Shown here piece by piece: positions 255 to 31,574 of a stretch of 32,772 nt of DNA (position 1 is the first letter of the stretch; each line of letters starts with the position of its first letter). The DNA is from Dehalococcoidia bacterium (GTDB taxonomy: Bacteria; Chloroflexota; Dehalococcoidia; UBA2979), in NCBI GenBank assembly GCA_040902395.1, contig JBBDXH010000089.1, positions 1 to 32,772 on the forward strand, in the 5' to 3' direction. The notes beneath the pieces are model-generated. The model searched no databases, was not told the origin of the DNA, and saw only the letters and a program-made list of their open reading frames with translations. The translations under genes and the position numbers were made by a program.

Positions 255-1670
255 CTAGCCCACCGACCCTTCCATCTGCAGTTCGATCAGCCGGTTGAGC
301 TCGATCGCGTACTCCATGGGGAGCTCCTTCACGATCGGCTCCACGAAGCCGTTCACGACCATCTTCGCTGCGTTCTCTTCGACGATGCCGCGAGACATCA
401 GGTAGAAGAGCTGGTCCTCGCCGAGCTTCGAGACCGAGGCCTCGTGCCCGATGTTCACCTGCTCCTCGTCGACTTCCATGGTGGGGTAGGTGTCCGAGCG
501 CGAGAGCTCGTCGAGCAGCAGCGCGTCGCAGCGCACGGTCGACGTCGAGTTCTTCGCGCCTTCGTAGACCTTGAGCAGCCCGCGGTATGACGTGCGACCG
601 CTGCCGCGCGAGACCGACTTCGAGACGATCGCGGACGAGGTGTTCGGCGCGACGTGCACGACCTTGCCGCCGGCGTCCTGGTGCTGGCCGTTGCCGGCGA
701 ACGCGAGCGAGAGGATCTCGCCGTGTGCCCGCTCGCCCATGAGGAACACCGACGGGTACTTCATCGTGAGCATGGAGCCGAGGTTGCCGTCGACCCACTC
801 CATGATCGCGTCTTCGTACGCGTAGGCACGCTTCGTGACGAGGTTGTAGACGTTGTTCGACCAGTTCTGAATCGTCGTGTAGCGGACGCGTGCGCCCTTC
901 TTGACGATGATCTCGACCACCGCCGAGTGCAACGACGCGCTGCTGTAGATCGGGGCGGTGCAGCCCTCGACGTAGTGCACCTGGCTGCCCTCGTCGGCGA
1001 TGATCAGCGTCCGCTCGAACTGGCCCATGTTCTCCGTGTTGATGCGGAAGTAGGCCTGGAGCGGGATGTCGACCTTCACGCCCTTCGGCACGTAGATGAA
1101 CGAGCCGCCCGACCACACGGCCGAGTTGAGCGCGGCGTACTTGTTGTCGCCGGGCGGGATGATCGTGCCGAAATACTCCTCGACCATCTCGGGATGCTCG
1201 GCGAGCGCCTGGTCCATCCCGAGGAAGAGCACGCCCAGCTTCGAGAGATCTTCGCGGATGTTGTGGTAGACGACCTCGGAGTCGTACTGCGCACCGGCGC
1301 CGGCGAGGAACTGCTTCTCCGCCTCCGGGATGCCGAGCTTGTCGAACGTGTTCTTGATGTACTCGGGCACGTCGTCCCAGTTGGTGGAGTCACGATCGGT
1401 CGCGCGCACGTAGTAGTGGATGTTGTCGAAGTCGAGCGCCGCGAGCAGCTCCGGGCTGCCGGCCCACGACGGGTTGGGCAGCTCGAGGAAGCGCTGGTAG
1501 GCGTCGAGCCGGAAGTCGAGCATCCACGCCGGCTCGCCCTTCATCGCGGACATGCCGCGGATGACGCCTTCGTTCAGGCCCTTGTCGGCGATGAACAGCG
1601 GCGCCTCAGTGTCGTGGAAGCCCCACTTGTATTCGCCGACGATCTGCTTGTTCTGCTCGGTTGTCGTCAT
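255..1670 (-). CDS. sufB: Fe-S cluster assembly scaffold SufB
   Basis: Motifs [50 protein letters not shown]-terminal QMEGSVG; ATGA overlap with sufC. Confidence 0.97.
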
Positions 1671-2449
1671 GACGTCACCGCTTCCTCGACCATGCCCAGC
1701 TCCCGGAGGATCGGGTCGTACCCGTTCGCTTCGATCTGCAGCGCCAGCTCCGGGCCACCTGAGCGGACGATGTTGCCGCCCACGAGGATGTGCACGAAGT
1801 CGGGCGTGATGTAGTTCAGGATGCGCTGGTAGTGCGTGATGATCAGGATCCCGATCTCAGGCGTGCGCAGCGCGTTCACACCCTCTGCGACGGTACGCAG
1901 CGCGTCCACGTCGAGCCCGGAGTCCGTCTCGTCGAGGATGGCCAGGTCTGGCTTGAGCATGCCGAGCTGGAGAATCTCGGCGCGCTTCTTCTCGCCGCCC
2001 GAGAAGCCGTCGTTCACGTACCGGCGCGCGAACGACTCGTCCATCTTCAGCGCCTGGAGGGTCGACCGCAGCTGCGCGAGGAACTCGCGCGGCGGCTGGT
2101 CGGTGCCGGTGCGCGCCTTCATCGCCTCGCGCAGCAGGTTCACCATGGTCACGCCGGGAATGGCCGTCGGGTACTGGAACGAGAGGAACAGTCCGAGGCG
2201 CGCGCGCGCGTCCGCCTTGAGGGCCGTGATGTCCTCGCCCTTGAAGATGATCTGCCCGCTGTCGACCGTGTACACGGGACTGCCGGCGATCGTCGTTGCG
2301 AGGGTGCTCTTGCCGGAGCCGTTCGGCCCCATCAAGGCGTGCACCTCGCCGCGGCCGATCTTGAGGTCGATGCCCTTGATGATCTGCGTGTCCCGCTGGT
2401 CAGTAATGCTGACCTTGAGGTTCCGAAGTTCGAGGATCGGCTCACTCAT
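1667..2449 (-). CDS. sufC: Fe-S cluster assembly ATPase SufC
   Basis: Walker [41 protein letters not shown]; start MSEPILEL at 2449 after GGAG. Confidence 0.96.
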
Positions 2450-2531
2450 CGCTGGCTGTCCGTCTCCCTGTATTCCGTGTTTCAACAGACCCGCGGCGCG
2501 CATGCAGCCACGTCCGTGTGTTCCGCCGCTG

Positions 2532-3170
2532 TTACGCCTTGACCACCAGGTATTCGCAGCTGTCGCTGCCGGACGCCACCGTGGACAGCTGTACGACCGG
2601 CAGCCCGATCAGCAGCTCGATCGTGCGACGGTCGGCGTCGCACGGCGCGCTGTGGTCCTCCGCGCACGAGCGATACGGGCAGCCGACGTTGTGCAGCCGG
2701 AAGGCGTCGCCTTCGTCCGTGACGTCGCTCAGGATGCCCTCTTCGCGCATGGCGGCGGTGACCTGGGCGACGCGCTCGTCGAGTCGCTCGGCGCGGACCT
2801 GGAACGCGTGATCGCGGGCCCGCGCCTCCCCGAGCTCCACGAAGAGCCGGTCGAGCACGCCGCTCCCGTCCAGCCCGGCGACATCGGCCTCGCCGAGGCT
2901 CGCGAGCGCGGGGTAGATGCGATCGAGCAGCCGCGAGTAGTGCGCCGCGGAACTCTGCTCCTCGCCCGCCTCGCTCAGCGAGTAGCGCGCCGCGGGGCGG
3001 CCGCGCGGCAGGCGCACGAGCCGCGCATCCACGAGCCCCTCCGCCACGAGCAGGTCCATATGCCGTCGGATCGACCCCTCGGATACCCCGATGCGCTCCG
3101 CCAGCTCCGCCACGGTGCATTCGCCCCGGTTCTGCAGGAGGTGCATGACTTCGTCGCGAGTGCGTTCCAT
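2532..3170 (-). CDS. sufR: SufR-like Fe-S sensing HTH transcriptional regulator
   Basis: N-terminal wHTH (TVAELAERIGVSEGSIRRHM...RGRP), C-terminal HNVGCPY..C...CEY cysteine pattern; first gene of the suf operon; start assumed MERTRDEV. Confidence 0.8.
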   Translation of the reverse strand: MERTRDEVMHLLQNRGECTVAELAERIGVSEGSIRRHMDLLVAEGLVDARLVRLPRGRPAARYSLSEAGEEQSSAAHYSRLLDRIYPALASLGEADVAGLDGSGVLDRLFVELGEARARDHAFQVRAERLDERVAQVTAAMREEGILSDVTDEGDAFRLHNVGCPYRSCAEDHSAPCDADRRTIELLIGLPVVQLSTVASGSDSCEYLVVKA

Positions 3171-3231
3171 CGAGTTACCCCGTCTCGAGCGGCCGTCCGC
3201 CCGCATTGAGGCGCATTGAGCCCTTGCTTCG

Positions 3232-3260
3232 AGGCTAGGCGCGCCTTCCCGCAATGTCAA
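3232..3260 (-). promoter_or_regulatory. sigma70-type promoter of the suf operon
   Basis: Minus strand TTGACA (3260-3255) - 17 nt - TAGCCT (3237-3232), with an AT-rich UP-like tract at 3261-3279 in a very GC-rich background. Confidence 0.75.
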
Positions 3261-3579
3261 TGATTTATGCATTTTATAGCGAGGAAGTGCACTTAAGTCG
3301 CGGTGCCCACCGGCAGCGGTCGATCAGCCGCCGGTGGCAACGGGGCGTCCGTCCGCGCGATGCACGTCGACATACTGCCGTCCGTCGATGGCCGACGACC
3401 GGTCGACAGCGTCCCGAGGCTAGCCCGAAACGGAGACCGCAGTCGATGGTCGGAGTCGCGTCCGCCGATTCGTGTCGGCGGCTGTCTGCCGCCGCTTGCC
3501 CGGAACCCGGGGGCACCTCATACGATGCGCCGGCGTCCGACAGGCGACGCCCAGCGGTCACGACGGAAGGCGGAGTGCA

Positions 3580-4005
3580 ATGAGCGACGAAGAGGTCCAG
3601 GGACTGAAAGTCGGCTCCAGCGCGAGCATCGCGAAGACGGTCACACAGGACGACGTCAACCGCTTTGCCGAGGTCACGCTCGACCACAACCCACTGCACT
3701 CCAACGCCGAGTACGCGGCCCGTACGCGCTTCAAGCAGCCGATCGCGCACGGCATGCTCGGCGCCGGCCTGATCTCGGCTGCCATCGGCACGAAGCTCGC
3801 GCCAAACTCGGTCGTCATCTACATGGCGCAGAACATGCAGTTCCGCGCGCCGGTGGTGCCGGGCGACACCATCACGGCGACGACGACCGTCTCCAAGGTC
3901 GACGCGGAGCGCAGCCGGGTGTCGCTCGATACAATCGTCACAAACCAGGACGGCACGGAGGTGATCCGCGGTGACGCGCTCGTGATGGTCGAGGCGCCGC
4001 GCTAG
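3580..4005 (+). CDS. MaoC/PhaJ-family (R)-specific enoyl-CoA hydratase
   Basis: Hydratase-2 motif FAEVTLDHNPLH...IAHGML, FRAPVVPGDTI; GGAG RBS before ATG 3580; TACGAT -10-like hexamer at 3521. Confidence 0.9.
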   Translation: MSDEEVQGLKVGSSASIAKTVTQDDVNRFAEVTLDHNPLHSNAEYAARTRFKQPIAHGMLGAGLISAAIGTKLAPNSVVIYMAQNMQFRAPVVPGDTITATTTVSKVDAERSRVSLDTIVTNQDGTEVIRGDALVMVEAPR

Positions 4006-4151: not shown

Positions 4152-5891
4152 ATGACGAACGCACAGGACGCCGCCGCGCACACGGCCGCGGCCGGCTCGA
4201 GCGGCCAGGCGGCCGCAGGCGGCGACGGCGCGCTCGGCGCGATCGCGGCCGCCCGCGCGGCGTGGGAGGAGCGCACGCTCCAGAAGGTGCTGGCACGCTT
4301 CCCCGAGCGGCGCCCACGCTTCGACGCCTCATCGACCGCCACCGAGCGCGTGTACACACCGCTCGACATCTCCGGCGTCGACTACGTCGGGGACATCGGC
4401 TTCCCCGGCGAGTACCCCTTCACGCGGGGCGTGCAGCCCACGATGTACCGAGGGCGGCTGTGGACGATGCGCCAGTACGCCGGCTTCGGCACCGCGCAGG
4501 AGACGAACGAGCGCTTTCAGCACCTGATCCGCAACGGCCAGACCGGCCTCTCGACCGCGTTCGACCTGCCCACGCAGACCGGCTACGACTCGGACCACCC
4601 CATGTCCGCGGGCGAGGTCGGCCAGGTGGGCGTCGCCATCGACTCGCTCGCCGACATGGAGACGCTGTTCGCGGGCATCCCGCTCGACGAGATCTCGACG
4701 TCCATGACGATCAACGCGCCCGCGGCGATGCTCGTCGCGATGTACATCGTGACCGCGCAGAAGCAGGGGCACGATGCCGGCGTGATCATGGGCACCGCCC
4801 AGAACGACGTGCTCAAGGAGTACGTCGCGCGCGGGACGTACATCTTCCCGCCGGCGCAGTCTGTGCGCCTCGCGGCGAACCTGATCACGTACTGCGCGCG
4901 CGAGACGCCGAAGTTCAATTCGATCTCGGTCTCCGGCTACCACATCCGGGAGGCCGGCTCGACGGCCGCGCAGGAGATCGCCTTCGCCTTCGCGAACGCG
5001 ATCGCGTACGTGGAGGAGTGCCGCCGGCAGGGCGCCGACGTCGATGACGTGGCCCCGCGCATCTCGTGGATCTTCAACACCCACAATCACTTCTTCGAAG
5101 AGATCGCCAAGTACCGCACGCTGCGGCGGATGTGGGCGCGCCTCATGCGCGACCGCTTCGGCGCCCGGCAGCCGTCGTCCTGGATGCTGCGCACGCACAC
5201 GCAGACCGGCGGCTCCACGCTCACCGCGCAGCAGCCGCTGAACAACATCGCACGTGCCGCGCTCCAGGCGCTCGCCGCCGTGGTCGGCGGCGTGCAGTCG
5301 CTCGCGCTCTCCTGCTACGACGAGGCGCTTGCGTTGCCCACAGAAGAGGCGCAGCAGATCGCGCTGCGCACGCAGCAGATCATCGCCCACGAGTCCGGCG
5401 TCGCCGACACCGTCGACCCGATCGCCGGCTCGTACTACGTGGAGGCGATGACGAACCAGCTCGAGGCCGAGGCGCAGAAGATCATGGACCGCGTGGAGGA
5501 CATCGGCGGCGCCGTCGCCTCGATCGAGTCCGGCTACATGCAGTCCGAGATCCAGGAAGCCTCCGTGCGGCACCAGCGCGAGGTCGAATCGGGCGAGCGC
5601 GTGATCGTGGGCGTGAACCAGTACGTCGACGAGAACGAGCAGGTCACCCCGATCTTCCGGCCGAACCTCGAGGTCGCGCAGGCGCAGCTCGAGCGCCTGG
5701 CGAAGCTTCGCGGGGGGCGTGACCTGGCCCCGGTCGACGCCGCGCTCGCGCGGCGGCGCGCCGCGGCGCGCGACGACACGAACCTCATGGAGCCGATCAT
5801 GGCGGCCGTGCGCACGTACGCCACGCTCGGCGAGATGTGCGGCGTGCTCCGCGAGGAGTGGGGCGAGTACGTCCCGCCGACCGCCATCTGA
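4152..5891 (+). CDS. Adenosylcobalamin-dependent acyl-CoA mutase, large (substrate-binding) subunit, methylmalonyl-CoA mutase family
   Basis: PGEYPFTRG, WTMRQYAGFG, GLSTAFDLPTQ, QNDVLKEY, SGYHIREAG, ATLGEMC; no C-terminal DxHxxG B12-binding domain. Confidence 0.95.
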   Translation: MTNAQDAAAHTAAAGSSGQAAAGGDGALGAIAAARAAWEERTLQKVLARFPERRPRFDASSTATERVYTPLDISGVDYVGDIGFPGEYPFTRGVQPTMYRGRLWTMRQYAGFGTAQETNERFQHLIRNGQTGLSTAFDLPTQTGYDSDHPMSAGEVGQVGVAIDSLADMETLFAGIPLDEISTSMTINAPAAMLVAMYIVTAQKQGHDAGVIMGTAQNDVLKEYVARGTYIFPPAQSVRLAANLITYCARETPKFNSISVSGYHIREAGSTAAQEIAFAFANAIAYVEECRRQGADVDDVAPRISWIFNTHNHFFEEIAKYRTLRRMWARLMRDRFGARQPSSWMLRTHTQTGGSTLTAQQPLNNIARAALQALAAVVGGVQSLALSCYDEALALPTEEAQQIALRTQQIIAHESGVADTVDPIAGSYYVEAMTNQLEAEAQKIMDRVEDIGGAVASIESGYMQSEIQEASVRHQREVESGERVIVGVNQYVDENEQVTPIFRPNLEVAQAQLERLAKLRGGRDLAPVDAALARRRAAARDDTNLMEPIMAAVRTYATLGEMCGVLREEWGEYVPPTAI

Positions 5892-6011
5892 GGCGTCGGT
5901 TCTGCCACGTCCGCGCCCCATCGATTGCCGCGCACGCGGCTATCCGGTAGTAACACCGAGCAACCGAGGCCGGGCCGGCCGGCGCCGTATGACCGAGGGG
6001 GGAACGAGACG

Positions 6012-6758
6012 ATGGCAGGGGCACTCGACGGCCAGGTGGCGGTCGTCACCGGCGCGAGCCGGGGCATCGGCCGCGCATGCGCGATCGAGCTCGCGAAGCA
6101 CGGCGCGAACGTCGTCGTGAATTACACGTCGAACAAAGACGCCGCGGAGTCCGCGGCGAAGGAGATCGAGGCGCACGGCGTGAAGGCGCTCGTCGTGCAG
6201 GCGGACGTGTCGAAAGCCGATCAGGCGAAAACGCTGATCGAAACCGCCGAGAAGACGTTCGGCAAGGTCGACATCCTCGTCAACAACGCCGGCATCAACC
6301 GTGACCGCACGGTGCAGCGCATGTCGGTGGACGAATGGGACTCGGTGATCGAGACCGACCTCTCGTCGATGTTCTACTGCACGAACGCCGTGGTGACCGG
6401 CATGCGCGATCGCGGCTACGGCCGGATCATCAACATGTCGTCGATCATCGGGCAGATGGGGAACCTCGGTCAGGCGAACTATGCGGCGGCAAAGGCCGGC
6501 ATGATCGCGTTCACGAAGTCCGCCGCGAAGGAACTCGCGCGCTTCGGTATCACGGTCAATGCCGTGTGCCCCGGCTTCGTGGAGACCGACATGGTGATGG
6601 CGCTCTCCGACGAGGTGAAGGCCAACCTGATCTCGCAGATTCCGCTCGGCCGCTTCGGGACCGCCGAAGACGTCGCGGCGACGGTCCGCTTCCTCTGCAC
6701 GGAGGGGGGGTTCTATACCGGTGCGCAGATGAGCCTCAACGGCGGCCAGTACATGTAG
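6012..6758 (+). CDS. SDR family acetoacetyl-CoA reductase / 3-oxoacyl reductase (PhaB/FabG-like)
   Basis: TGASRGIG, NNAGINRDRT, SSIIGQ..GQANYAAAK, CPGFVETDMV, C-terminal NGGQYM, resembling Bacillus-type PhaB; GAGGGG RBS. Confidence 0.88.
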   Translation: MAGALDGQVAVVTGASRGIGRACAIELAKHGANVVVNYTSNKDAAESAAKEIEAHGVKALVVQADVSKADQAKTLIETAEKTFGKVDILVNNAGINRDRTVQRMSVDEWDSVIETDLSSMFYCTNAVVTGMRDRGYGRIINMSSIIGQMGNLGQANYAAAKAGMIAFTKSAAKELARFGITVNAVCPGFVETDMVMALSDEVKANLISQIPLGRFGTAEDVAATVRFLCTEGGFYTGAQMSLNGGQYM

Positions 6759-19873: not shown

Positions 19874-20004
19874 CGCCGCACCTGCTTGATGTGCTGCGCT
19901 ACCGCGGAGTGGTCGCGAGCGTTAGGGATGGCGTTCCTGGTTCGACGACCGAGTGTAGCAGCGTGGAAACGCAGGTCGATGCAACCGCGCCCGGGCGGCG
20001 TTCC

Positions 20005-21462
20005 CTACCACTCGCCCGAGCCGAGGAAGGCGTCGATCGCCGCCGCAGCACGCTGGCCGTCGGCGAGCGCGGTGACCACGAGGTCGGCGCCGTTCACGTT
20101 GTCGCCGCCGGCGAAGACCCCGGGAATGTTCGTCTTCATCGTCAGTGGATCGACGACCACGCGGTCCCAGCGGTCGCGGAGCAGGTCGCCGGCGATCTCG
20201 CCCCAGCGCTCGTCCACGTTGTAGCCGATGGCCACGACGATCGCGTCGGCTTCGATGTCGAACTCCGAGCCCGGCTCGGGCAGCGGCCGCGCGCGGCCCG
20301 TGTCGTCCGGCTCGCCGAGGCGCATGCGCTGGCAGCGCAAGCCGCGGACGCGGCCGGCAGCGTCGAGCAGCACCTCGGCCGGCGTCGTCAGGTAGAGGAA
20401 CGTGACGCCTTCCTCGGCTGCGTGCTGGCGCTCCTCAGCGCGACCCTGCATCTCCGCCTCGCTGCGACGGTAGATCAGCGAGACGTGCTCCGCGCCGAGC
20501 CGGATCGCCGAGCGCACGCAATCCATGGAGGTATCGCCGCCGCCGATCACGGCGACGCGCCGCACGGGCGGCAGCGGCTCGGCGTACGCAGCCCCGAGCC
20601 GGGCCGGCTCGAGGTTCGCACGCACCAGGAACGGCGTGGCGAGGTGCATGCCGGGGGCGTCTTCGTTGGGGATGCCGAGCGCCGCCCCCACCGGCGCCCC
20701 GAAGCCAAAGAAGACCGCGTCGAAGCCGGAGCGCAGCTCCTCGAACGACACGTCCCGCCCGACCTCGACCCCGCACCGCAGCTCGACGCCGAGGGCGGCG
20801 AGTTCGTCGAACTTGCGGGTCACCGCGGGTTTGTTCTGCTTGAAGGTCGGGATGCCGTAGAGGAGCACCCCGCCCGGCTCGGGCCACGCCTCGAACATCA
20901 CGATCGCGTGGCCGGCCTTCGCGAGCCGCTCCGCGGCCGCGATGCCGGCCGGGCCGCTGCCGACGACGGCGACGCGCTTGCCCGTGCTCGCCGCGCGCAC
21001 CGGCGCGGGCGCGCCGCCGCTGGCAAGCTGCCACTCCGTGACGAACGTCTCGAGCTTGCCGATGGCGACGGGCAGCGCGTTCTTCCCGACGACGCAATGT
21101 CCCTCGCACAGCCGTTCCTGCGGGCAGAGCCGCCCGCACATCTCGGGCAGCTCGCTCGTCTCACGGAACACGTCGGCAGCCTTCGAGTAGTCGCCCTGCT
21201 CCAGCAACCAGAAGGCGCCGGGGATGTCGTTGTGGACGGGACACGCGCGCTGGCACGGGGCCGCGGGACACTGGATGCAGCGCATCGCTTCAGCCCTGGC
21301 CGTCTCCTCGTCGAAGAGGAAGTACACCTCGTCCCAGTTGCGGACGCGCGAAGCGGCATCCTGCTTGGACGGGCGTCGGGCCGGGATCCGGAGGCGCGCC
21401 TTGCGATCGACCGCCGAGGGGTCGGGCTGCTTCCGCGGTTGGGGCGGTTCGTCGGGAGACAC
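20005..21462 (-). CDS. GltD/NfnB/SudA-like NAD(P)-dependent Fe-S flavoprotein
   Basis: RCIQCPAAPCQRACP, CGRLCPQERLCEGHC, GSGPAG, YGIP.FK, GGGDTSMDC, YRRS, FAGGD. Confidence 0.9.
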   Translation of the reverse strand: MSPDEPPQPRKQPDPSAVDRKARLRIPARRPSKQDAASRVRNWDEVYFLFDEETARAEAMRCIQCPAAPCQRACPVHNDIPGAFWLLEQGDYSKAADVFRETSELPEMCGRLCPQERLCEGHCVVGKNALPVAIGKLETFVTEWQLASGGAPAPVRAASTGKRVAVVGSGPAGIAAAERLAKAGHAIVMFEAWPEPGGVLLYGIPTFKQNKPAVTRKFDELAALGVELRCGVEVGRDVSFEELRSGFDAVFFGFGAPVGAALGIPNEDAPGMHLATPFLVRANLEPARLGAAYAEPLPPVRRVAVIGGGDTSMDCVRSAIRLGAEHVSLIYRRSEAEMQGRAEERQHAAEEGVTFLYLTTPAEVLLDAAGRVRGLRCQRMRLGEPDDTGRARPLPEPGSEFDIEADAIVVAIGYNVDERWGEIAGDLLRDRWDRVVVDPLTMKTNIPGVFAGGDNVNGADLVVTALADGQRAAAAIDAFLGSGEW

Positions 21463-21468
21463 GTCTTC

Positions 21469-21497
21469 AGCCTAGGCACGCGCGCGCTTCGGCTCAA
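21469..21497 (-). promoter_or_regulatory. sigma70-type promoter, leaderless arrangement
   Basis: TTGAGC - 17 nt - TAGGCT - 6 nt - GTG start of the GltD-like gene. Confidence 0.6.
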
Positions 21498-21573
21498 TCA
21501 CGCCGCCGCGGCGCACCGACTCGCGACGCAAGCGCGAATGCCCGAAGATGCGACGACGGACGAAGCACGGGGG

Positions 21574-22527
21574 ATGACGATGAGCGTGAGCATCGGCCTG
21601 GGCCTGGCGCAGTACCCGTTCTCCAGCACCCGCGAGTTCTGGCGCTGGATCGAGCTCTGTGAGGGCGGCGACGTCGACTCGATCTGGCAGACCGACCGCC
21701 TGGTCTCGGCGCAGCCGATGCTCGAGCCGATGAGCCTGATGGCGGCGCTCGCCGGCGCGACGAAGCGCTTGCAGTTCGGCATGAACGTCGTGGTCCTCCC
21801 GCTCCGCGATCCGCTGGTGCTCGCGAAGCAGTGCGCGACCATCGACTACCTCAGCGACGGGCGGCTGCTGCCGGCGTTCGGCGTCGGCGGCGATGCCATC
21901 CCGGAGTGGCGCACGACCGGACGCTCGCCCGGCACGCGCGGCGCGCGCTCGGACGAGATGCTCGAGGTGATGACGCGCCTGTGGCGCGGCGAGGAGGTGA
22001 CGTTCGCCGGCAAGCACTTCCAGTACGAAGGCGCACGCATCGCGCCGCTGCCGGTGCGGCAGCCGCTGCCACTGTGGATCGGAGGCAGCTCCCGCGCCGC
22101 GATCCGCCGCACGGCGACGCTCGGCACCGGTTGGCTGTCCGGCGTCGCTTCGCCGGAGCGCGTCGCGCCCGTCGTCGTCGCGATCAAGGCGGCAGCGGCC
22201 GAGGCCGGCCGGACCATCGACGAGGATCACTACGGCGCGGGCTTCCCCTTCCGCTTCGGGTCGTGGGACGAGCCCGTGGTTGAGCGCTCGGCAAGCGGCA
22301 TGGCTCGGTTGCCGGAGATCGGGGATCCCCGCGGCTTCCTCGCCGTCGGCGACGAGCACGACATCCTCGCGCGGATCGACGACTACCGGCGGGCCGGCGT
22401 GTCCAAGTTCGTGATGCGACCGCTCGCAACGGACGGGAATGACTTCATCGAGCAGACCCGGCGACTGATCGAGACGGTGATCCCGGTCGTGCACGGGGAG
22501 CGCGTACGCACGCCGGCCGCGCGCTGA
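21574..22527 (+). CDS. LLM-class flavin/F420-dependent oxidoreductase
   Basis: DSIWQTDR, LRDPLVLAKQCATIDYLSDGR, PLWIGGSS; start MTMSVSIG (21574 or 21580). Confidence 0.9.
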   Translation: MTMSVSIGLGLAQYPFSSTREFWRWIELCEGGDVDSIWQTDRLVSAQPMLEPMSLMAALAGATKRLQFGMNVVVLPLRDPLVLAKQCATIDYLSDGRLLPAFGVGGDAIPEWRTTGRSPGTRGARSDEMLEVMTRLWRGEEVTFAGKHFQYEGARIAPLPVRQPLPLWIGGSSRAAIRRTATLGTGWLSGVASPERVAPVVVAIKAAAAEAGRTIDEDHYGAGFPFRFGSWDEPVVERSASGMARLPEIGDPRGFLAVGDEHDILARIDDYRRAGVSKFVMRPLATDGNDFIEQTRRLIETVIPVVHGERVRTPAAR

Positions 22528-26756: not shown

Positions 26757-27143
26757 TCACGCCGGCAGATCGGCCACCCTCACGCCGTACTGGTACACCG
26801 CGATCGGGTTGCCCGCGGGGTCGGTGAACGCGAGTTTCACGCCGCCGGGGATCTCGTGGTAGTCCTCCGTCATCGGCACCCCGCACGCCAACAGGTGCGA
26901 TTTGAAGGCCGCGATGTCCGCGACGCGGAACCCGGGTTCCCATGCCTGGTCGCTCGTCCCGCGCTCGTGAATGCCGATATCCACGTTGGCGAGCCGCACC
27001 TGTGCCCACTGCGGAGTGACCGTCTGGACGGTCGCCCCCAGCACATCGCGGTAGAACGCCACCGTGGCCGGAACATCGTCGGCCCGCGCGAGCACGAGGT
27101 CGAGCAGTCCGATGTCGGCGCCTCGTGGCACGCCATCGCTCAT
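26757..27143 (-). CDS. VOC / glyoxalase family protein
   Basis: DDVPATVAFYRDVLG, FRVADI, FTDPAGNPI; GGGGGA RBS. Confidence 0.88.
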   Translation of the reverse strand: MSDGVPRGADIGLLDLVLARADDVPATVAFYRDVLGATVQTVTPQWAQVRLANVDIGIHERGTSDQAWEPGFRVADIAAFKSHLLACGVPMTEDYHEIPGGVKLAFTDPAGNPIAVYQYGVRVADLPA

Positions 27144-27776: not shown

Positions 27777-29603
27777 TCAGTACGCCGGCGCGCTGAGCGC
27801 ATCCTCGATCGCGTGCACCAGTTGATCGGGGTCGGTCAGCGGCGCCGTGCAGACCGAGCCCACGCACACATACGCCACGCGCGGCCGATCGGGCGGCAGC
27901 CGGAGCTGCTCGATCAGCGTGCGATCGCCTGCCAGGTAGAGCCGCTGGACGGTGCGCGCGGCCAGCGGAAGGCGCAGCGCCGCCTGATGCAGCGGGTCCG
28001 CGACCCGATCCGGCTCGCCCGGCGGCGTCTCCGCGACGATCTTGATCTCGGCCTCTGCCGAGAGCATCCGGTCGGCCACGCGGGCGTAGCCCGCGTCCTC
28101 GACGCGCAGGTCGGCGACAGAGCCGGCGAACTCGCCGAGCGTCTCGTGCGCCGTGCGCAGGAATCGCTCGTCGTGCGTGAGCCGGCCGAGCCAGAGGAAC
28201 GCCTCGGCGGCTTCGGCATTCTCGTCCACGGGCTTGAGACGCTCCACGAGCAGACCGGTCAAGTCGTGGCTGTCCGCCGTGTCCCAGAAGCCACGACCGG
28301 GATCGCGCCACTCCTGCTCGAGCACGCGGGCGAGCCCCTGCGCGCGCTCGAGGTAATTCGGACGCCCGGTGACTTCATATGCCTGGAGCAGCGCGAGCAT
28401 CGTTTGCGTCTGATCGGCGAGCTGGCCCAGTCCATAGGCCGCGCCGTCCCAGGCGTGGTACATCCCGGCCTCGCCCGCCGGCATCTCGGTGAGCAAGAAG
28501 TCGACGGCGCGCAGTCCACGCTCGGTCCAGTCGCGCCGGCGAAAGGCGATGCCGCACTGCATCAGCCCGCGCGCGAGCACGGCGGTGGCGGCGGTGTACA
28601 CGCGGTCGTCGACCGCGGGTGCGCCGTGCGCGGCGCGGCCGGCGTCGTCCTTCTGGTAGTACGCCTCGTCGGCGTCCTGCGAACCGAAGAAGCCGCCGCT
28701 TGGCTCACCGAGCACCGCGGCGAGGTACGCGATCACCTGCGCCGCGAACGGCTCCGCCCAGTCCTCCGCGTCTTCGTCGATCAGCGCGAACTCGCCCAGC
28801 GCGAGCAGCATGGCGCCCTGCTCGCGGCTGAGCTTCTCGTAGTGAGGCTCGGTCCAGTCAGGGTGCGTTGCGTAACGAAAGAAGCCGCCCTCGACAGCGT
28901 CGAACAGCGGGCTGGCGGCCATCTCCGCGAAGGTGAAACGCGCGCGGGCGAGCGCCCGCGCATCGCCTCGGCGGCGATACGCGTAGAGCAGCAGCCGCAG
29001 CACAGCCACGTTCGGGAATTTCAGCTGCGCACGCGGGTCGTCATTCCCGACGCGGAAGCCTCCGTGCTCTTCGTCGTACTGCGCGCCGAGCTTCTCCAGC
29101 GCGGCGTCCAGCATCTCGGGCGACAGGAAGCCGCCGACGGTCCCGAGCAGGAGCCGGCGCTGGCGCTCCACGCGACCGGCTTCGACCTCCCCGGCGATGC
29201 CCTCGCGGTTGACCAGCCAGCCTTCGTGGACGCGCCGCAGTACGTCGACCATCTGGTCGGCGCGGAGATACGTCACGGCGGTGATCACGTCACCCTCGCT
29301 CGTGAGGAAGGCCGTAGTCGGCCAGCCGCCCGCGTTGTAGCGCGCGTCCACGTCCGGGCGCTCGTCGGCATCGACGCGCACGCAGACGAAGTGCCGCGTC
29401 AGCAGGTCCGCGACGGCGGCATCCGAGTACGTCGACTCGTCCATGACATGGCACCAGTGGCACCACACGGCGGAGATCGAGAGCAAGACCGGCTTGTCCT
29501 CGGCGCGCGCATGCGCGAAGACGTCCGGACCCCATGCCTGCCACGGGATCGCGTCTGCGTGGTTCGGCCGACGAGAGAAGTGGAACGGGCTGTGCTCGGT
29601 CAC
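27777..29603 (-). CDS. YyaL/Ssp411 family thioredoxin-domain protein (DUF255)
   Basis: IPWQAWG, KPVLLSISAVWCHWCHVMD, DERPDVD, GGWPTTAFL, GGFFRYA, PHYEK; GGAGG RBS before GTG. Confidence 0.92.
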   Translation of the reverse strand: MTEHSPFHFSRRPNHADAIPWQAWGPDVFAHARAEDKPVLLSISAVWCHWCHVMDESTYSDAAVADLLTRHFVCVRVDADERPDVDARYNAGGWPTTAFLTSEGDVITAVTYLRADQMVDVLRRVHEGWLVNREGIAGEVEAGRVERQRRLLLGTVGGFLSPEMLDAALEKLGAQYDEEHGGFRVGNDDPRAQLKFPNVAVLRLLLYAYRRRGDARALARARFTFAEMAASPLFDAVEGGFFRYATHPDWTEPHYEKLSREQGAMLLALGEFALIDEDAEDWAEPFAAQVIAYLAAVLGEPSGGFFGSQDADEAYYQKDDAGRAAHGAPAVDDRVYTAATAVLARGLMQCGIAFRRRDWTERGLRAVDFLLTEMPAGEAGMYHAWDGAAYGLGQLADQTQTMLALLQAYEVTGRPNYLERAQGLARVLEQEWRDPGRGFWDTADSHDLTGLLVERLKPVDENAEAAEAFLWLGRLTHDERFLRTAHETLGEFAGSVADLRVEDAGYARVADRMLSAEAEIKIVAETPPGEPDRVADPLHQAALRLPLAARTVQRLYLAGDRTLIEQLRLPPDRPRVAYVCVGSVCTAPLTDPDQLVHAIEDALSAPAY

Positions 29604-29663
29604 GATCGGCCTCCGGGGCCACTACGAATCGATCGTAGCAGCGCCCGGGCTCAGGCACGGGAC

Positions 29664-31574
29664 TCAGCCCGTGACGATGCGCCGCACCATCTCGACCGCC
29701 ACTTCGTAGCGGCCGAACGACGGCATGATGTAGATCCCGGACACGAAGTCGAAGCGGCGCGCGTCGTCCACCTGCTCCATCGCGATCTCGAGACCGGCGG
29801 CCAACCCCGCCTCACCGGCGGCGCGCATGCGCTCGCGCACGCCCGCCGGCACCACGACCCCGGCGAGTTCGTTGTGGATGAACTCGGCGTGCGGCGAGGA
29901 CACGAGCGGCATGATGCCGAGCAGCACCGGGACCGCGATCGGCCCGAGCCGTTCGAAGAACTCGCGCACGGTCTCCGCGTCGTACACCGGCTGCGTCATC
30001 ACGAGATCGGCGCCGGCATCGAGCTTCTCGCGCAGACGCCGGAGCTCGAGTTCGACGTCCTCGGCCGTGGGATTGGCGGCGCACGCGACGAAGAAGTCCG
30101 TCGCCCGGCCGATCGAGTTCCCGGCGAAGTCGACCCCTTCGTTCAGGCGCTTGAGTACGCGGATGAAGCCGATCGCGTCGACGTCCCACACGGCCGACGA
30201 GCGAGATGCCTCCGCCGGGGGGTCACCGGTGAGCGCGATGATGTTGCGGACGCCGAGCGCGTACGCGCCGAGCAGGTCGGACTGGAGCGCCATCAGGTTC
30301 CGGTCGCGCGTCGTCTGGTGGATGATCGTCTCGATCCCCACCGCGCGCTCGATCTGGACGGCGAGCGCCAGCGCGCTCATGCGCACCCGCGCCATCGGCG
30401 AGTCGCCGATGTTGATCGCGTCGGCACCGGCAGCGAAGAGCTGGCGCGCGCCTTCGATCGCCTTACGCGGATTCACGCCGCGCGGGGGATCGATCTCCAC
30501 CGAGATCGCGAACTTCCCGGCTGCCAGCTTGTCGCGCAGGCGCGGGGTCGCGCGCTCCGCCGATACTTCGCGCGGCTCGAGGGCCGTGTCGGCGGCGGCG
30601 ATCGCACCGCGCGTGTCCACCGTCTCGCCGACGCCGCCGATCACGCGGCCGCCGACGGCCGCGATGCCGGGCCCGGCGAGCGCGTCGCGCATCGCGCTGA
30701 CGTGCTCGGTGGTGGTGCCGCAGCAGCCGCCGATGAAGGCCGCACCCAGGTCCTTCGCGCGGCGGGCGAAGTCCGCGAAGTAGGCGGGCGTCGACGGGTA
30801 GACGAGGCGTCCCCCGGCGACGCGCGGCATGCCGGCGTTCGGCTTGACTGCGAGCGGCGCGATGTCAGGCTGTCCGGCGAGTTCGTACAGTATGTCGAGC
30901 GCGGCCTGCGGCCCGACACCGCAGTTCACGCCCACCACGTCGGCGCCGCCCTCCGTCAGCGCACGCGCGACGTCGAGCGGGCGCTCTCCGTTCGGCGTCG
31001 TGAGGGAGGCGGTGAAGTTCACCATCGCGATCACGGGCAGGTCCGTGGTGCGGCGGGCGGCACGCAGCGCCGCAAGCGCCTCGGTCAGCCCGGACATCGT
31101 CTCGATCACGATCAGGTCAACGCCCCCCTCGACGAGCGCGACGATCTGCTCGGCGAACGCCGCTTCCGCGTCCGCGACCGAGAGGCCACCGATTGAGAAG
31201 TCCCGCCCGACGGGTCCGACCGACCCGCCGACGAAGGTGGGCGCACCCTTGATCTCGCGTGCGTCGCGCGCGACCCGCGCCGCCTGGAAGTTCGCGTCGC
31301 GCACGCGATGCGCGATGCCGTCGTGCTGCATGAGATGACGGTTGGCGGTGAAGGTGTTCGTGAGGATCAGCTCCGCGCCGGCCTCGATGTAGTCCTCGTG
31401 GAGCTGTCGCACGAGGTCGGGCCGTTCGAGCACCGCGATCGCCCCGCGTCCGGCCCAGCCGCGCGCGCGCAGCGTGGTGCCCGTGGCGCCGTCCCCGAGG
31501 ACGACGCCGCGTTCGAGCGCGCGCAGGAAGGGGTGCTCCATGCGAGCCATGCGAACCGGCGGAGGCGTGGACAC
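29664..31574 (-). CDS. yitJ: Bifunctional homocysteine S-methyltransferase / 5,10-methylene-THF reductase
   Basis: DGATGT, GVNCGVGP, PNAGMP, GGCCGTT, then VEIDPPRG, RDRNLMALQSDLLG, TGDP, TQPVYD; start 31574 or 31550. Confidence 0.92.
   Translation of the reverse strand: MSTPPPVRMARMEHPFLRALERGVVLGDGATGTTLRARGWAGRGAIAVLERPDLVRQLHEDYIEAGAELILTNTFTANRHLMQHDGIAHRVRDANFQAARVARDAREIKGAPTFVGGSVGPVGRDFSIGGLSVADAEAAFAEQIVALVEGGVDLIVIETMSGLTEALAALRAARRTTDLPVIAMVNFTASLTTPNGERPLDVARALTEGGADVVGVNCGVGPQAALDILYELAGQPDIAPLAVKPNAGMPRVAGGRLVYPSTPAYFADFARRAKDLGAAFIGGCCGTTTEHVSAMRDALAGPGIAAVGGRVIGGVGETVDTRGAIAAADTALEPREVSAERATPRLRDKLAAGKFAISVEIDPPRGVNPRKAIEGARQLFAAGADAINIGDSPMARVRMSALALAVQIERAVGIETIIHQTTRDRNLMALQSDLLGAYALGVRNIIALTGDPPAEASRSSAVWDVDAIGFIRVLKRLNEGVDFAGNSIGRATDFFVACAANPTAEDVELELRRLREKLDAGADLVMTQPVYDAETVREFFERLGPIAVPVLLGIMPLVSSPHAEFIHNELAGVVVPAGVRERMRAAGEAGLAAGLEIAMEQVDDARRFDFVSGIYIMPSFGRYEVAVEMVRRIVTG

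Follow-up and report, generated by a model that had tools for sequence, protein, structure and literature searches.

A split acyl-CoA mutase with altered conserved segments

The window, a stretch of 32,772 nucleotides from a Dehalococcoidia bacterium (assembly GCA_040902395.1, contig JBBDXH010000089.1), carries at 4152-5891 of its forward strand a gene for a B12-dependent acyl-CoA mutase. It is contig C89 of a metagenome-assembled genome (MAG) of 2.52 Mb in 255 contigs, with 80% completeness, and has a G+C content of 71%. The protein belongs to a clade that, judging from its sequences and their genomic surroundings, is most likely a split analogue of ethylmalonyl-CoA mutase (Ecm, EC 5.4.99.63), derived from methylmalonyl-CoA mutase (MCM) and widespread in Chloroflexota. 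Numbers preceded by G, C, L and f are our handles for genomes, contigs, loci and families.

The open reading frame (ORF) of 579 amino acids (aa) translates without a stop. It matches PF01642 with 702.8 bits (cut-off 22.1; positions 5-512 of 512 of the profile aligned) and TIGR00641 with 702 bits (cut-off 303.8). Its chain stops after the barrel domain and has no B12-binding domain, which identifies it as the large subunit of a split mutase. With the MCM equivalog NF006944 it scores 598.5 bits, under the cut-off of 876, although this profile models the fused form of 721 positions and a split subunit could hardly attain its cut-off. The best solved relative is HcmA (4R3U), the large subunit of split 2-hydroxyisobutyryl-CoA mutase, with an E-value of 6e-167; human and Propionibacterium shermanii MCM come next. 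The MutA chains 1req_B and 6oxc_B give weak matches, far below those of the catalytic chains. The closest named relatives come from Chloroflexota/Dehalococcoidia MAGs, and databases call the close ones "methylmalonyl-CoA mutase (family protein)".

The features of the gene are listed below, with residues compared to MutB, the catalytic chain of P. shermanii MCM (1req_A).

4152..5891, + strand: large subunit of a split-type B12 acyl-CoA mutase, candidate ethylmalonyl-CoA mutase of the SWIF/ALSC clade (PF01642, TIGR00641, clade signature)
4476..4478, + strand: Tyr109, equivalent of MutB Tyr89, kept (phmmer alignment; invariant in relatives)
4830-4832, + strand: Arg227, forming with Tyr109 the dicarboxylate-type pair, kept (phmmer alignment; invariant in relatives)
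5058..5072, + strand: R303-I307 (RISWI), with Trp306/Ile307 in place of MutB F286/F287 (alignment to MutB, clade comparison)
5292..5315, + strand: V381-C388 (VQSLALSC) for TQSLHTNS, that is T to V, H364 to A, T365 to L, N366 to S and S367 to C (alignment to MutB, clade comparison)

The initial annotation of this gene had paired Y109, R227, H264 and H349/Q351 with Y89, R207, H244 and H328/Q330 of MutB, and phmmer bears this out. These residues align with positions 88, 206, 243, 327 and 329 of the 1req_A chain. The literature numbers Y89, R207, H244, H328 and Q330 would follow if the chain is numbered one lower than in the literature, as the 727-residue length suggests; the match thus assumes that the deposited chain lacks the first residue. 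The whole catalytic and dicarboxylate set is kept (Tyr109, Arg227, Tyr263-His264, His349, Gln351 and Glu391). Both Tyr89 and Arg207 of canonical MCM have their equivalents here, and the non-Tyr89 residue and Gln207 that mark isobutyryl-, hydroxyisobutyryl- and pivalyl-CoA mutases are absent.

The two altered segments proposed at the same time, RISWI (5058-5072) and QSLALSC (5295-5315), stand as described after translation and alignment to MutB. W306-I307 align with F286-F287, and A385-L386-S387-C388 with H364-T365-N366-S367; Q382-C388 is encoded by nucleotides 5295-5315, within a DNA pattern match that spans 5295-5326. Human MCM, MutB and HcmA read SFF[WF] or AFFF, plus QSLHTN, at the matching places. 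The conserved SFF[FW] and QSLHTN segments of canonical MCM are thus replaced in our protein by SWIF and QSLALSC. Residues 306/307 and 385-388 presumably line the pocket, with the H-T-N loop at the cofactor/substrate site. In human MCM, the p.T387I variant loses ligand-induced stabilisation, and adenosylcobalamin (AdoCbl) destabilises it (PMC4441004).

The signature is fixed in a clade

SWIF, V381 and ALSC are present in 120 of the 120 closest database relatives (74-98% identity), which also have Y109, R227, YH263-264 and E391 without exception. The signature occurs in 21/21 genome-derived clade members and in 0/75 canonical split MCMs, a comparison that leaves out two unpublished genomes and three truncated genes. 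SWIF is found in all 21 members and [SA]FFF in all 75 canonical sequences, where the equivalents of H364, T365 and N366 vary little or not at all; these three residues are also kept in the solved MCMs. In a partial scan of species-representative genomes (2 of 64 parts), 78 loci could be aligned: seven have SWIF with A-[LV]-S-C, and 71 are canonical, with [SA]FFF and H-[TV]-N. The equivalents of Tyr109 and Arg227 are invariant in all 78, as in the 120 relatives.

Eleven positions discriminate the clade from canonical split MCMs: 242, 306, 307, 324, 348, 369, 381 and 385-388. The change of T to V/I at 381 and positions 242, 324 and 369 had escaped the initial annotation. Position 348, just before the equivalent of His328, changes from Phe to Thr; since MutB reads RTH and human MCM RAH there, it sets the clade apart from split MCMs only. 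In an alignment of 27 clade members (A1) the signature residues are invariant at a mean column identity of 79%. W306, I307, V381, A385, L386, S387 and C388 are fixed, and the SWIF/ALSC changes are not due to chance.

SWIF/ALSC defines a clade, which together with two divergent f35 rows has a tree support of 86 when L034 is set aside. Canonical enzymes were also searched for the same substitutions, which would have spoken against a distinct class; none of the 75 split MCMs has them, and the canonical forms are also read in human MCM and MutB.

Two loci, L120 (G062:C347) and L121 (G050:C200), form a long-branch offshoot of the clade in family f35. They read RQYTGF, GRGAW, CGYHVRE, FSFNFNV, RMIAGGGG and AQTMALCCYDEA. 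With RMIAGGGG they have no equivalents of His328 or Gln330, and they may represent yet another specificity or a decaying copy.

Classical Ecm is a distant relative with the same loop replaced

Genes of the classical Ecm type were found in four Chloroflexota genomes, G372, G411, G413 and G416, as frames of 664-778 aa with a fused B12 domain. A tblastn search of plasmids for named Ecm returned only MCM-type annotations, and Ecm-type sequences were taken from genome searches instead. They read RTY[AS]GH, CSYHLQE, RISFFVNS, FRYGVQ and LQLPAWNEA; the motifs behind the label were reportedly described by Erb et al. in 2008, and we see the same features in L131, L143, L169, L171 and L172. A Binatia genome also carries an Ecm-type gene.

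All four genomes are Ccr-positive (crotonyl-CoA carboxylase/reductase) and clade-negative, and three of them belong to the window's own family. A fused Ecm-type mutase occurs in 0/20 clade-positive genomes examined, against 4/11 of the Ccr-positive, clade-negative genomes (G084 stands outside this set). The two mutases are thus distributed in a complementary manner.

Classical Ecm/MeaA of the Rhodobacter sphaeroides type resembles the clade in keeping Tyr and Arg and in having its H364-T365-N366 loop replaced, with Thr changed to Leu; by inference it also shares the reaction and the Ccr pathway context. The H-T-N loop is kept in canonical MCMs, in F/Q-type paralogues similar to isobutyryl- and 2-hydroxyisobutyryl-CoA mutase, and in HcmA. 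It is replaced only in the Ecm type (Q-L-P) and in the clade (A-L-S), and in both Thr365 becomes Leu while His364 and Asn366 are lost.

In other respects the two differ. Classical Ecm has a fused C-terminal B12 domain, RTY[AS]GH, CSYHLQE, a Gly for His328 and a Q-L-P-A loop, whereas the window's protein is a split large subunit with RQYAGF, SGYHIRE, His349, W306/I307 and A-L-S-C. RTYAGH and the Gly at 328, already noted as missing at the outset, are indeed absent, and RQYAGF and RTHTQ are read instead. Split MCMs, for example the C249 paralogue within its own genome, share its architecture, length and Tyr/Arg/His/Gln/Glu set, at 54-61% identity for canonical split MCMs, and probably the same small subunit and MeaB. 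What separates it from them is the eleven positions, mainly SFFF to SWIF and TQSLHTNS to VQSLALSC, and the genomic partners, which are ccr and C4/C5 acyl-CoA enzymes for the clade and the small subunit and MeaB for split MCM. HcmA is likewise a split large subunit and keeps AFFF and QSLHTN, but has Ile and Gln (RQIAGF, AQKEY) in place of Tyr109 and Arg227.

A maximum-likelihood tree of 62 rows (quick search, SH-aLRT (Shimodaira-Hasegawa approximate likelihood-ratio test) support, root not inferred) places a long branch with support 100 between the three Ecm/MeaA-like rows and the whole of the split mutases, and the window's protein does not group with Ecm. In the same tree 21/22 clade rows fall together with the two divergent f35 rows (support 86), and L034 lies among canonical MCMs. 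A second origin of the motif, which this free tree might suggest, is unsupported: a tree that holds all 24 motif-bearing rows together has a log-likelihood 26.09 higher and a p-AU (approximately unbiased test) of 0.829, so that a single origin is not rejected. The clade groups with split MCMs and is remote from Ecm; an ECM function, if true, would have arisen independently.

One further fused mutase, MeaA-like, was met in L144 (G402:C4:4334-5761). It reads RTYAGF, ARGTS, CGYHYMESG and LQLPGFREA, has a very long branch and comes from a genome without a Ccr match.

The clade travels with crotonyl-CoA carboxylase/reductase

In 401 evenly drawn Chloroflexota genomes we looked for DNA that matches a pattern for Q-S-x-A-x-S-C-[YF]-D-E-A (21 positive) and for Ccr with TIGR01751 at E<=1e-80 (24 positive, 22 of them over the cut-off). 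As a control, only 1/14 well-known genomes passed the Ccr cut-off. Motif and Ccr occur together in 18 genomes, the motif only in 3, Ccr only in 6 and neither in 374; without the unpublished G173 and G272 the counts are 16/3/6/374 of 399. They are given without a test statistic, kin among the surveyed genomes not being independent. The pairing recurs in five families (f1, f13, f27, f45 and f67); in f27 motif and Ccr are found together in 10 of 17 genomes and are both missing from the other 7.

A second sample of 31 relatives, which overlaps the first in G000 and G045, contains 15 genomes with both, 3 with the motif only, 6 with Ccr only and 7 with neither, the clade signature thus being present in 18/31. 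Six of the seven named genomes from which L009-L013, L034 and L064 come contain a Ccr over the cut-off; the L034 genome is the exception. In 12 of 18 double-positive genomes ccr and the clade mutase lie on one contig, less than 10 kb apart.

The window's own genome has a Ccr of 592 bits (cut-off 378.55) on contig C91, behind an acyl-CoA dehydrogenase (ACAD). It also holds an MC_hydratase match and HpcH/HpaI-family genes. One locus of this genome, L162, was considered as a malyl-CoA lyase and rejected, being an HpaI-type aldolase.

Paralogues and a possibly shared small subunit

The same genome encodes a canonical split MCM on contig C249 (RQYAGF, ARGTY, RLAFFW, RFHTQT, TQSLHTNS). Directly downstream of it lie a B12-binding small subunit (C249:8040-8447) and MeaB (C249:8453-9424). 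This is the one stand-alone small subunit over the Pfam cut-off in the genome, which is incomplete, and the window holds no B12-binding partner for the mutase at 4152-5891. Canonical MCM coexists with the clade gene here as well as in G045, G228, G400, G224 and G164. In the window's family, f1, most relatives possess just two full-length mutases, a canonical one and a clade member.

The nearly complete genomes G045, G228 and G400 contain two to three large subunits and a single stand-alone small subunit, a frame of 147-157 aa. It lies within about 2 kb of a non-clade mutase gene in G045 and G228, and beside no mutase gene found in G400. In these genomes a single small subunit may thus partner two or three large subunits, which raises the question of how they share the cofactor.

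A third mutase large subunit of the window's genome is split by contig ends (C81:4364-5295 and C190:3-890), with 17 residues shared between the halves. Its RMFAGF and AQNEY are isobutyryl-CoA-mutase-like; it stands behind a thiolase and a short-chain dehydrogenase, and two crotonase-family genes follow it. Split or truncated mutase frames were also seen at G224:C7:9445-10936, G400:C1:2511424-2512638, G405:C4:109216-110684 and G427:C1:229197-230739. In these few-contig assemblies they may be long-read indel errors rather than pseudogenes.

Gene neighbourhoods

The mutase gene of the window is flanked by two genes on the same strand:

3472..4005, + strand: MaoC-family (R)-specific enoyl-CoA hydratase, PhaJ-like (PF01575, 90.3 bits; best NCBIfam match NF006045, to its hydratase part)
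5925..6758, + strand: PhaB/FabG-like short-chain dehydrogenase (adh_short, 216.9 bits; NF009546, acetoacetyl-CoA reductase, 302 bits, under the cut-off of 418)

The hydratase lies 146 nucleotides upstream of the mutase, a position it also has in L009 and L010. The reductase begins 34 nucleotides downstream, with an equal position in L009, L010, L013 and L158; its true start may be later in the frame. A suf cluster (SufR-like regulator, SufC-like ATPase, SufB/D) at 255-3272 of the minus strand diverges from the trio of hydratase, mutase and reductase. The trio is likewise found next to a suf operon in L009 and L010.

Other loci vary this arrangement. The reductase stands beside the mutase in L013; a MaoC gene is accompanied by an ACAD in L012 and by a thiolase-like gene in L034, and in L064 two MaoC-type subunits follow directly downstream of the mutase. 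In L145 ccr, mutase and ACAD are contiguous on one strand, and ccr and mutase are contiguous in L146 and L151. L158, from the 100%-complete G045, combines a CitE/RipC/malyl-CoA-lyase-like lyase, an ACAD, an MC_hydratase/RipB-like hydratase, the mutase, a PhaB-like reductase and an acetyl-CoA acetyltransferase, and L157 has ccr, ACAD and an MC_hydratase-like gene in order. L011 has no hydratase, reductase, ACAD, MaoC or thiolase-like gene within four genes. No genes for anaerobic alkane, alkylsuccinate or long-chain metabolism were seen in the examined neighbourhoods.

The ethylmalonyl-CoA route of Erb, Alber and Fuchs proceeds through thiolase, acetoacetyl-CoA reductase, (R)-hydratase, Ccr, mutase, and a dehydrogenase, hydratase and lyase for C5-dicarboxyl-CoA. 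Taken together, the enzyme types near the clade mutase and ccr are those of this route. The genomic coupling to Ccr and to downstream C5-dicarboxyl-CoA enzymes that an ethylmalonyl-CoA mutase should have was thus found.

Several smaller observations concern the same loci. An ATP-dependent phosphoenolpyruvate (PEP) carboxykinase lies a few genes from ccr in five of them (L146, L148, L150, L151 and L153), which would fit a C4-to-PEP flow on C2 compounds. In three f27 genomes the clade mutase is immediately followed by a conserved gene of about 145 aa (L148:12782-13228, L154:15863-16342 and L155:5567-5992); these genes have 30-67% mutual identity and no Pfam or NCBIfam match. In family f45, a RidA/YjgF-like gene comes directly after the mutase in G110 (L147); in G053 (L153) a homologue is found one short ORF farther on.

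Proposed function and its alternatives

Altogether, the clade is probably an independently evolved ethylmalonyl-CoA mutase that databases list as "methylmalonyl-CoA mutase". Ethylmalonyl-CoA is proposed as the substrate because of the co-occurrence and operons with Ccr, the canonical MCM kept alongside, and the distribution complementary to classical Ecm. In this reading the window's mutase, of split MCM ancestry, is the large subunit, which binds the substrate, of an adenosylcobalamin-dependent acyl-CoA mutase with two subunits. It would have been retuned to convert (2R)-ethylmalonyl-CoA into (2S)-methylsuccinyl-CoA and back, as Ecm does. The residues at 385-388, which are smaller and apolar, could together with the W/I pair accommodate the additional methylene of an ethyl group, and classical Ecm could achieve the same with Q-L-P-A at those columns. 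The subunit might borrow the genome's single small subunit and the MeaB beside canonical MCM on C249. The flanking PhaJ-like hydratase and PhaB-like reductase would supply crotonyl-CoA to the Ccr on C91.

A number of points weigh against this assignment. The ethylmalonyl-CoA route requires MCM as well as ECM, so that linkage to ccr cannot by itself separate the two roles; their separation relies on the coexistence with canonical MCM, the complementarity with classical Ecm and the remodelling of the H-T-N loop common to both. Ccr does not always travel with a dedicated mutase, since 7/11 Ccr-positive, clade-negative genomes (G292, G065, G289, G248, G414, G421 and G422) have neither a clade nor an Ecm-type gene. 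Conversely, four genomes with ALSC/AVSC have no Ccr over the cut-off, namely G045 (100% complete, best match 179.5 bits), G430, G417 (77% complete) and the L034 genome, and neither do two further motif-only genomes with the divergent f35 variant, G050 and G062. The label of classical Ecm rests on the fused architecture and on the motifs reported for it. The ACADs adjoining the mutase are ordinary enzymes of 385-390 aa without a specific family call, and the small hydratases score best on RipB/Ich, of the itaconyl-CoA type, and not on the mesaconyl-C1-CoA hydratase equivalog. As the neighbouring lyases in turn score best on CitE/RipC, the lower branch after the mutase may differ from the textbook pathway. 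Finally, the pocket role of residues 306/307 and 385-388 is presumed; the support seen for it is limited to the behaviour of human p.T387I (PMC4441004).

The initial annotation had seen in this gene neither an MCM nor an ECM, and a candidate new specificity, perhaps for bulkier alkylmalonyl- or alkylsuccinyl-CoA. This is right in part: the clade is distinct from canonical MCM and from classical Ecm, and its H364-N366 loop and F286/F287 are remodelled. An enzyme that is neither MCM nor ECM, with a new specificity, has found no support: linkage to Ccr, presence of canonical MCM and complementarity with Ecm all favour ethylmalonyl-CoA, and with it the ECM reaction in a different lineage.

A carboxy-acyl-CoA of another kind is nevertheless the alternative that survives best, although we consider it unlikely. 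The substrate would be a longer alkylmalonyl- or alkylsuccinyl-CoA or an intermediate of the itaconate, mesaconate or citramalate type, with Ccr supplying or merely accompanying its pathway. Ccr-family enzymes do accept other enoyl-CoAs. The pocket changes are unlike those of classical Ecm (F286W/F287I here, H328G there), and the RipB/Ich and CitE/RipC affinities of the adjoining hydratases and lyases, as well as the four signature-bearing genomes without Ccr over the cut-off, point the same way. However, the complementarity with classical Ecm in one bacterial family would be hard to explain if the reactions differed, and the neighbours are C4/C5 enzymes (acetoacetyl-CoA thiolase, PhaB-like, PhaJ-like), none of them of the long-chain or alkylsuccinate type in the examined loci.

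It is improbable that the clade is a second methylmalonyl-CoA mutase isozyme, whose loop changes would alter regulation, cofactor handling or stability and not the substrate. Such an isozyme would explain why Tyr109/Arg227 and all catalytic residues are kept, it would be compatible with ccr linkage given the need of the route for MCM, and the T387I change of this loop in human MCM acts mainly on the response to AdoCbl. It would leave unexplained why the same genomes already possess canonical MCM, next to the small subunit and MeaB, why the clade is absent where classical Ecm is present and present where Ecm is missing, and why H364, T365 and N366 hardly ever vary in the 75 canonical split MCMs and the solved enzymes. 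A non-catalytic paralogue with, for example, a structural or regulatory role, comparable to the inactive MutA subunit in P. shermanii MCM, is very improbable: no B12 subunit of its own lies nearby and inactive mutase-like subunits are known (1req_B, 6oxc_B), yet the catalytic and carboxylate-binding residues are invariant in the 120 relatives, the mean column identity across the clade indicates strong constraint, and MutA-type chains are far less similar than catalytic ones.

If the clade is an ethylmalonyl-CoA mutase, it is tempting to combine its peculiarities into one variant route of acetate/C2 assimilation, run by Chloroflexota and at least one NC10 (Methylomirabilis) genome; as a whole we hold this to be doubtful. 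Its three unusual features, which would have to be true jointly, are an ECM step reinvented from split MCM, a small subunit and MeaB shared with MCM, and a lower branch that consists of a short ACAD of ordinary type, a RipB/Ich-like hydratase with a single hotdog and a lyase similar to CitE/RipC. Its end products may be pyruvate and acetyl-CoA rather than glyoxylate and propionyl-CoA. Were all of it true, the pathway itself would be new, beyond the enzyme alone.

With the clade named "methylmalonyl-CoA mutase" in databases, many Chloroflexota would seem to have an incomplete ethylmalonyl-CoA pathway when searched with classical ecm. SWIF together with [VI]QS[LMI]A[LV]SC offers a simple marker to correct the annotation. 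The clade also constitutes a natural experiment in B12 mutase specificity, in which two unrelated lineages replaced H-T-N, both with Thr to Leu; the pocket would otherwise be enlarged differently in the clade and in Ecm, which gives residues to swap in MCM/ECM engineering. We found no earlier description of the clade as ethylmalonyl-CoA mutase in the open literature on Chloroflexota/Dehalococcoidia, subscription journals not being covered.

Other features of the window

The Rfam scan of the window gave no match, hence no cobalamin riboswitch. Between 3200 and 7500 the promoter scan gave 0 sites, and the 3 terminator-like sites, all on the minus strand, are no more than in shuffled sequences. 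A glyoxalase-fold gene at 26757-27143 was considered as a methylmalonyl/ethylmalonyl-CoA epimerase, and is not recognisable as one.

Two long frames stand out on the plus strand. In the 878-aa frame at 19891-22527, a luciferase-like/F420 oxidoreductase domain covers only residues about 580-850. The 1127-aa frame at 27813-31196 has no Pfam match and an unusual codon-position G+C of 0.90/0.49/0.74. Both may be over-extended or spurious in DNA of this G+C content.

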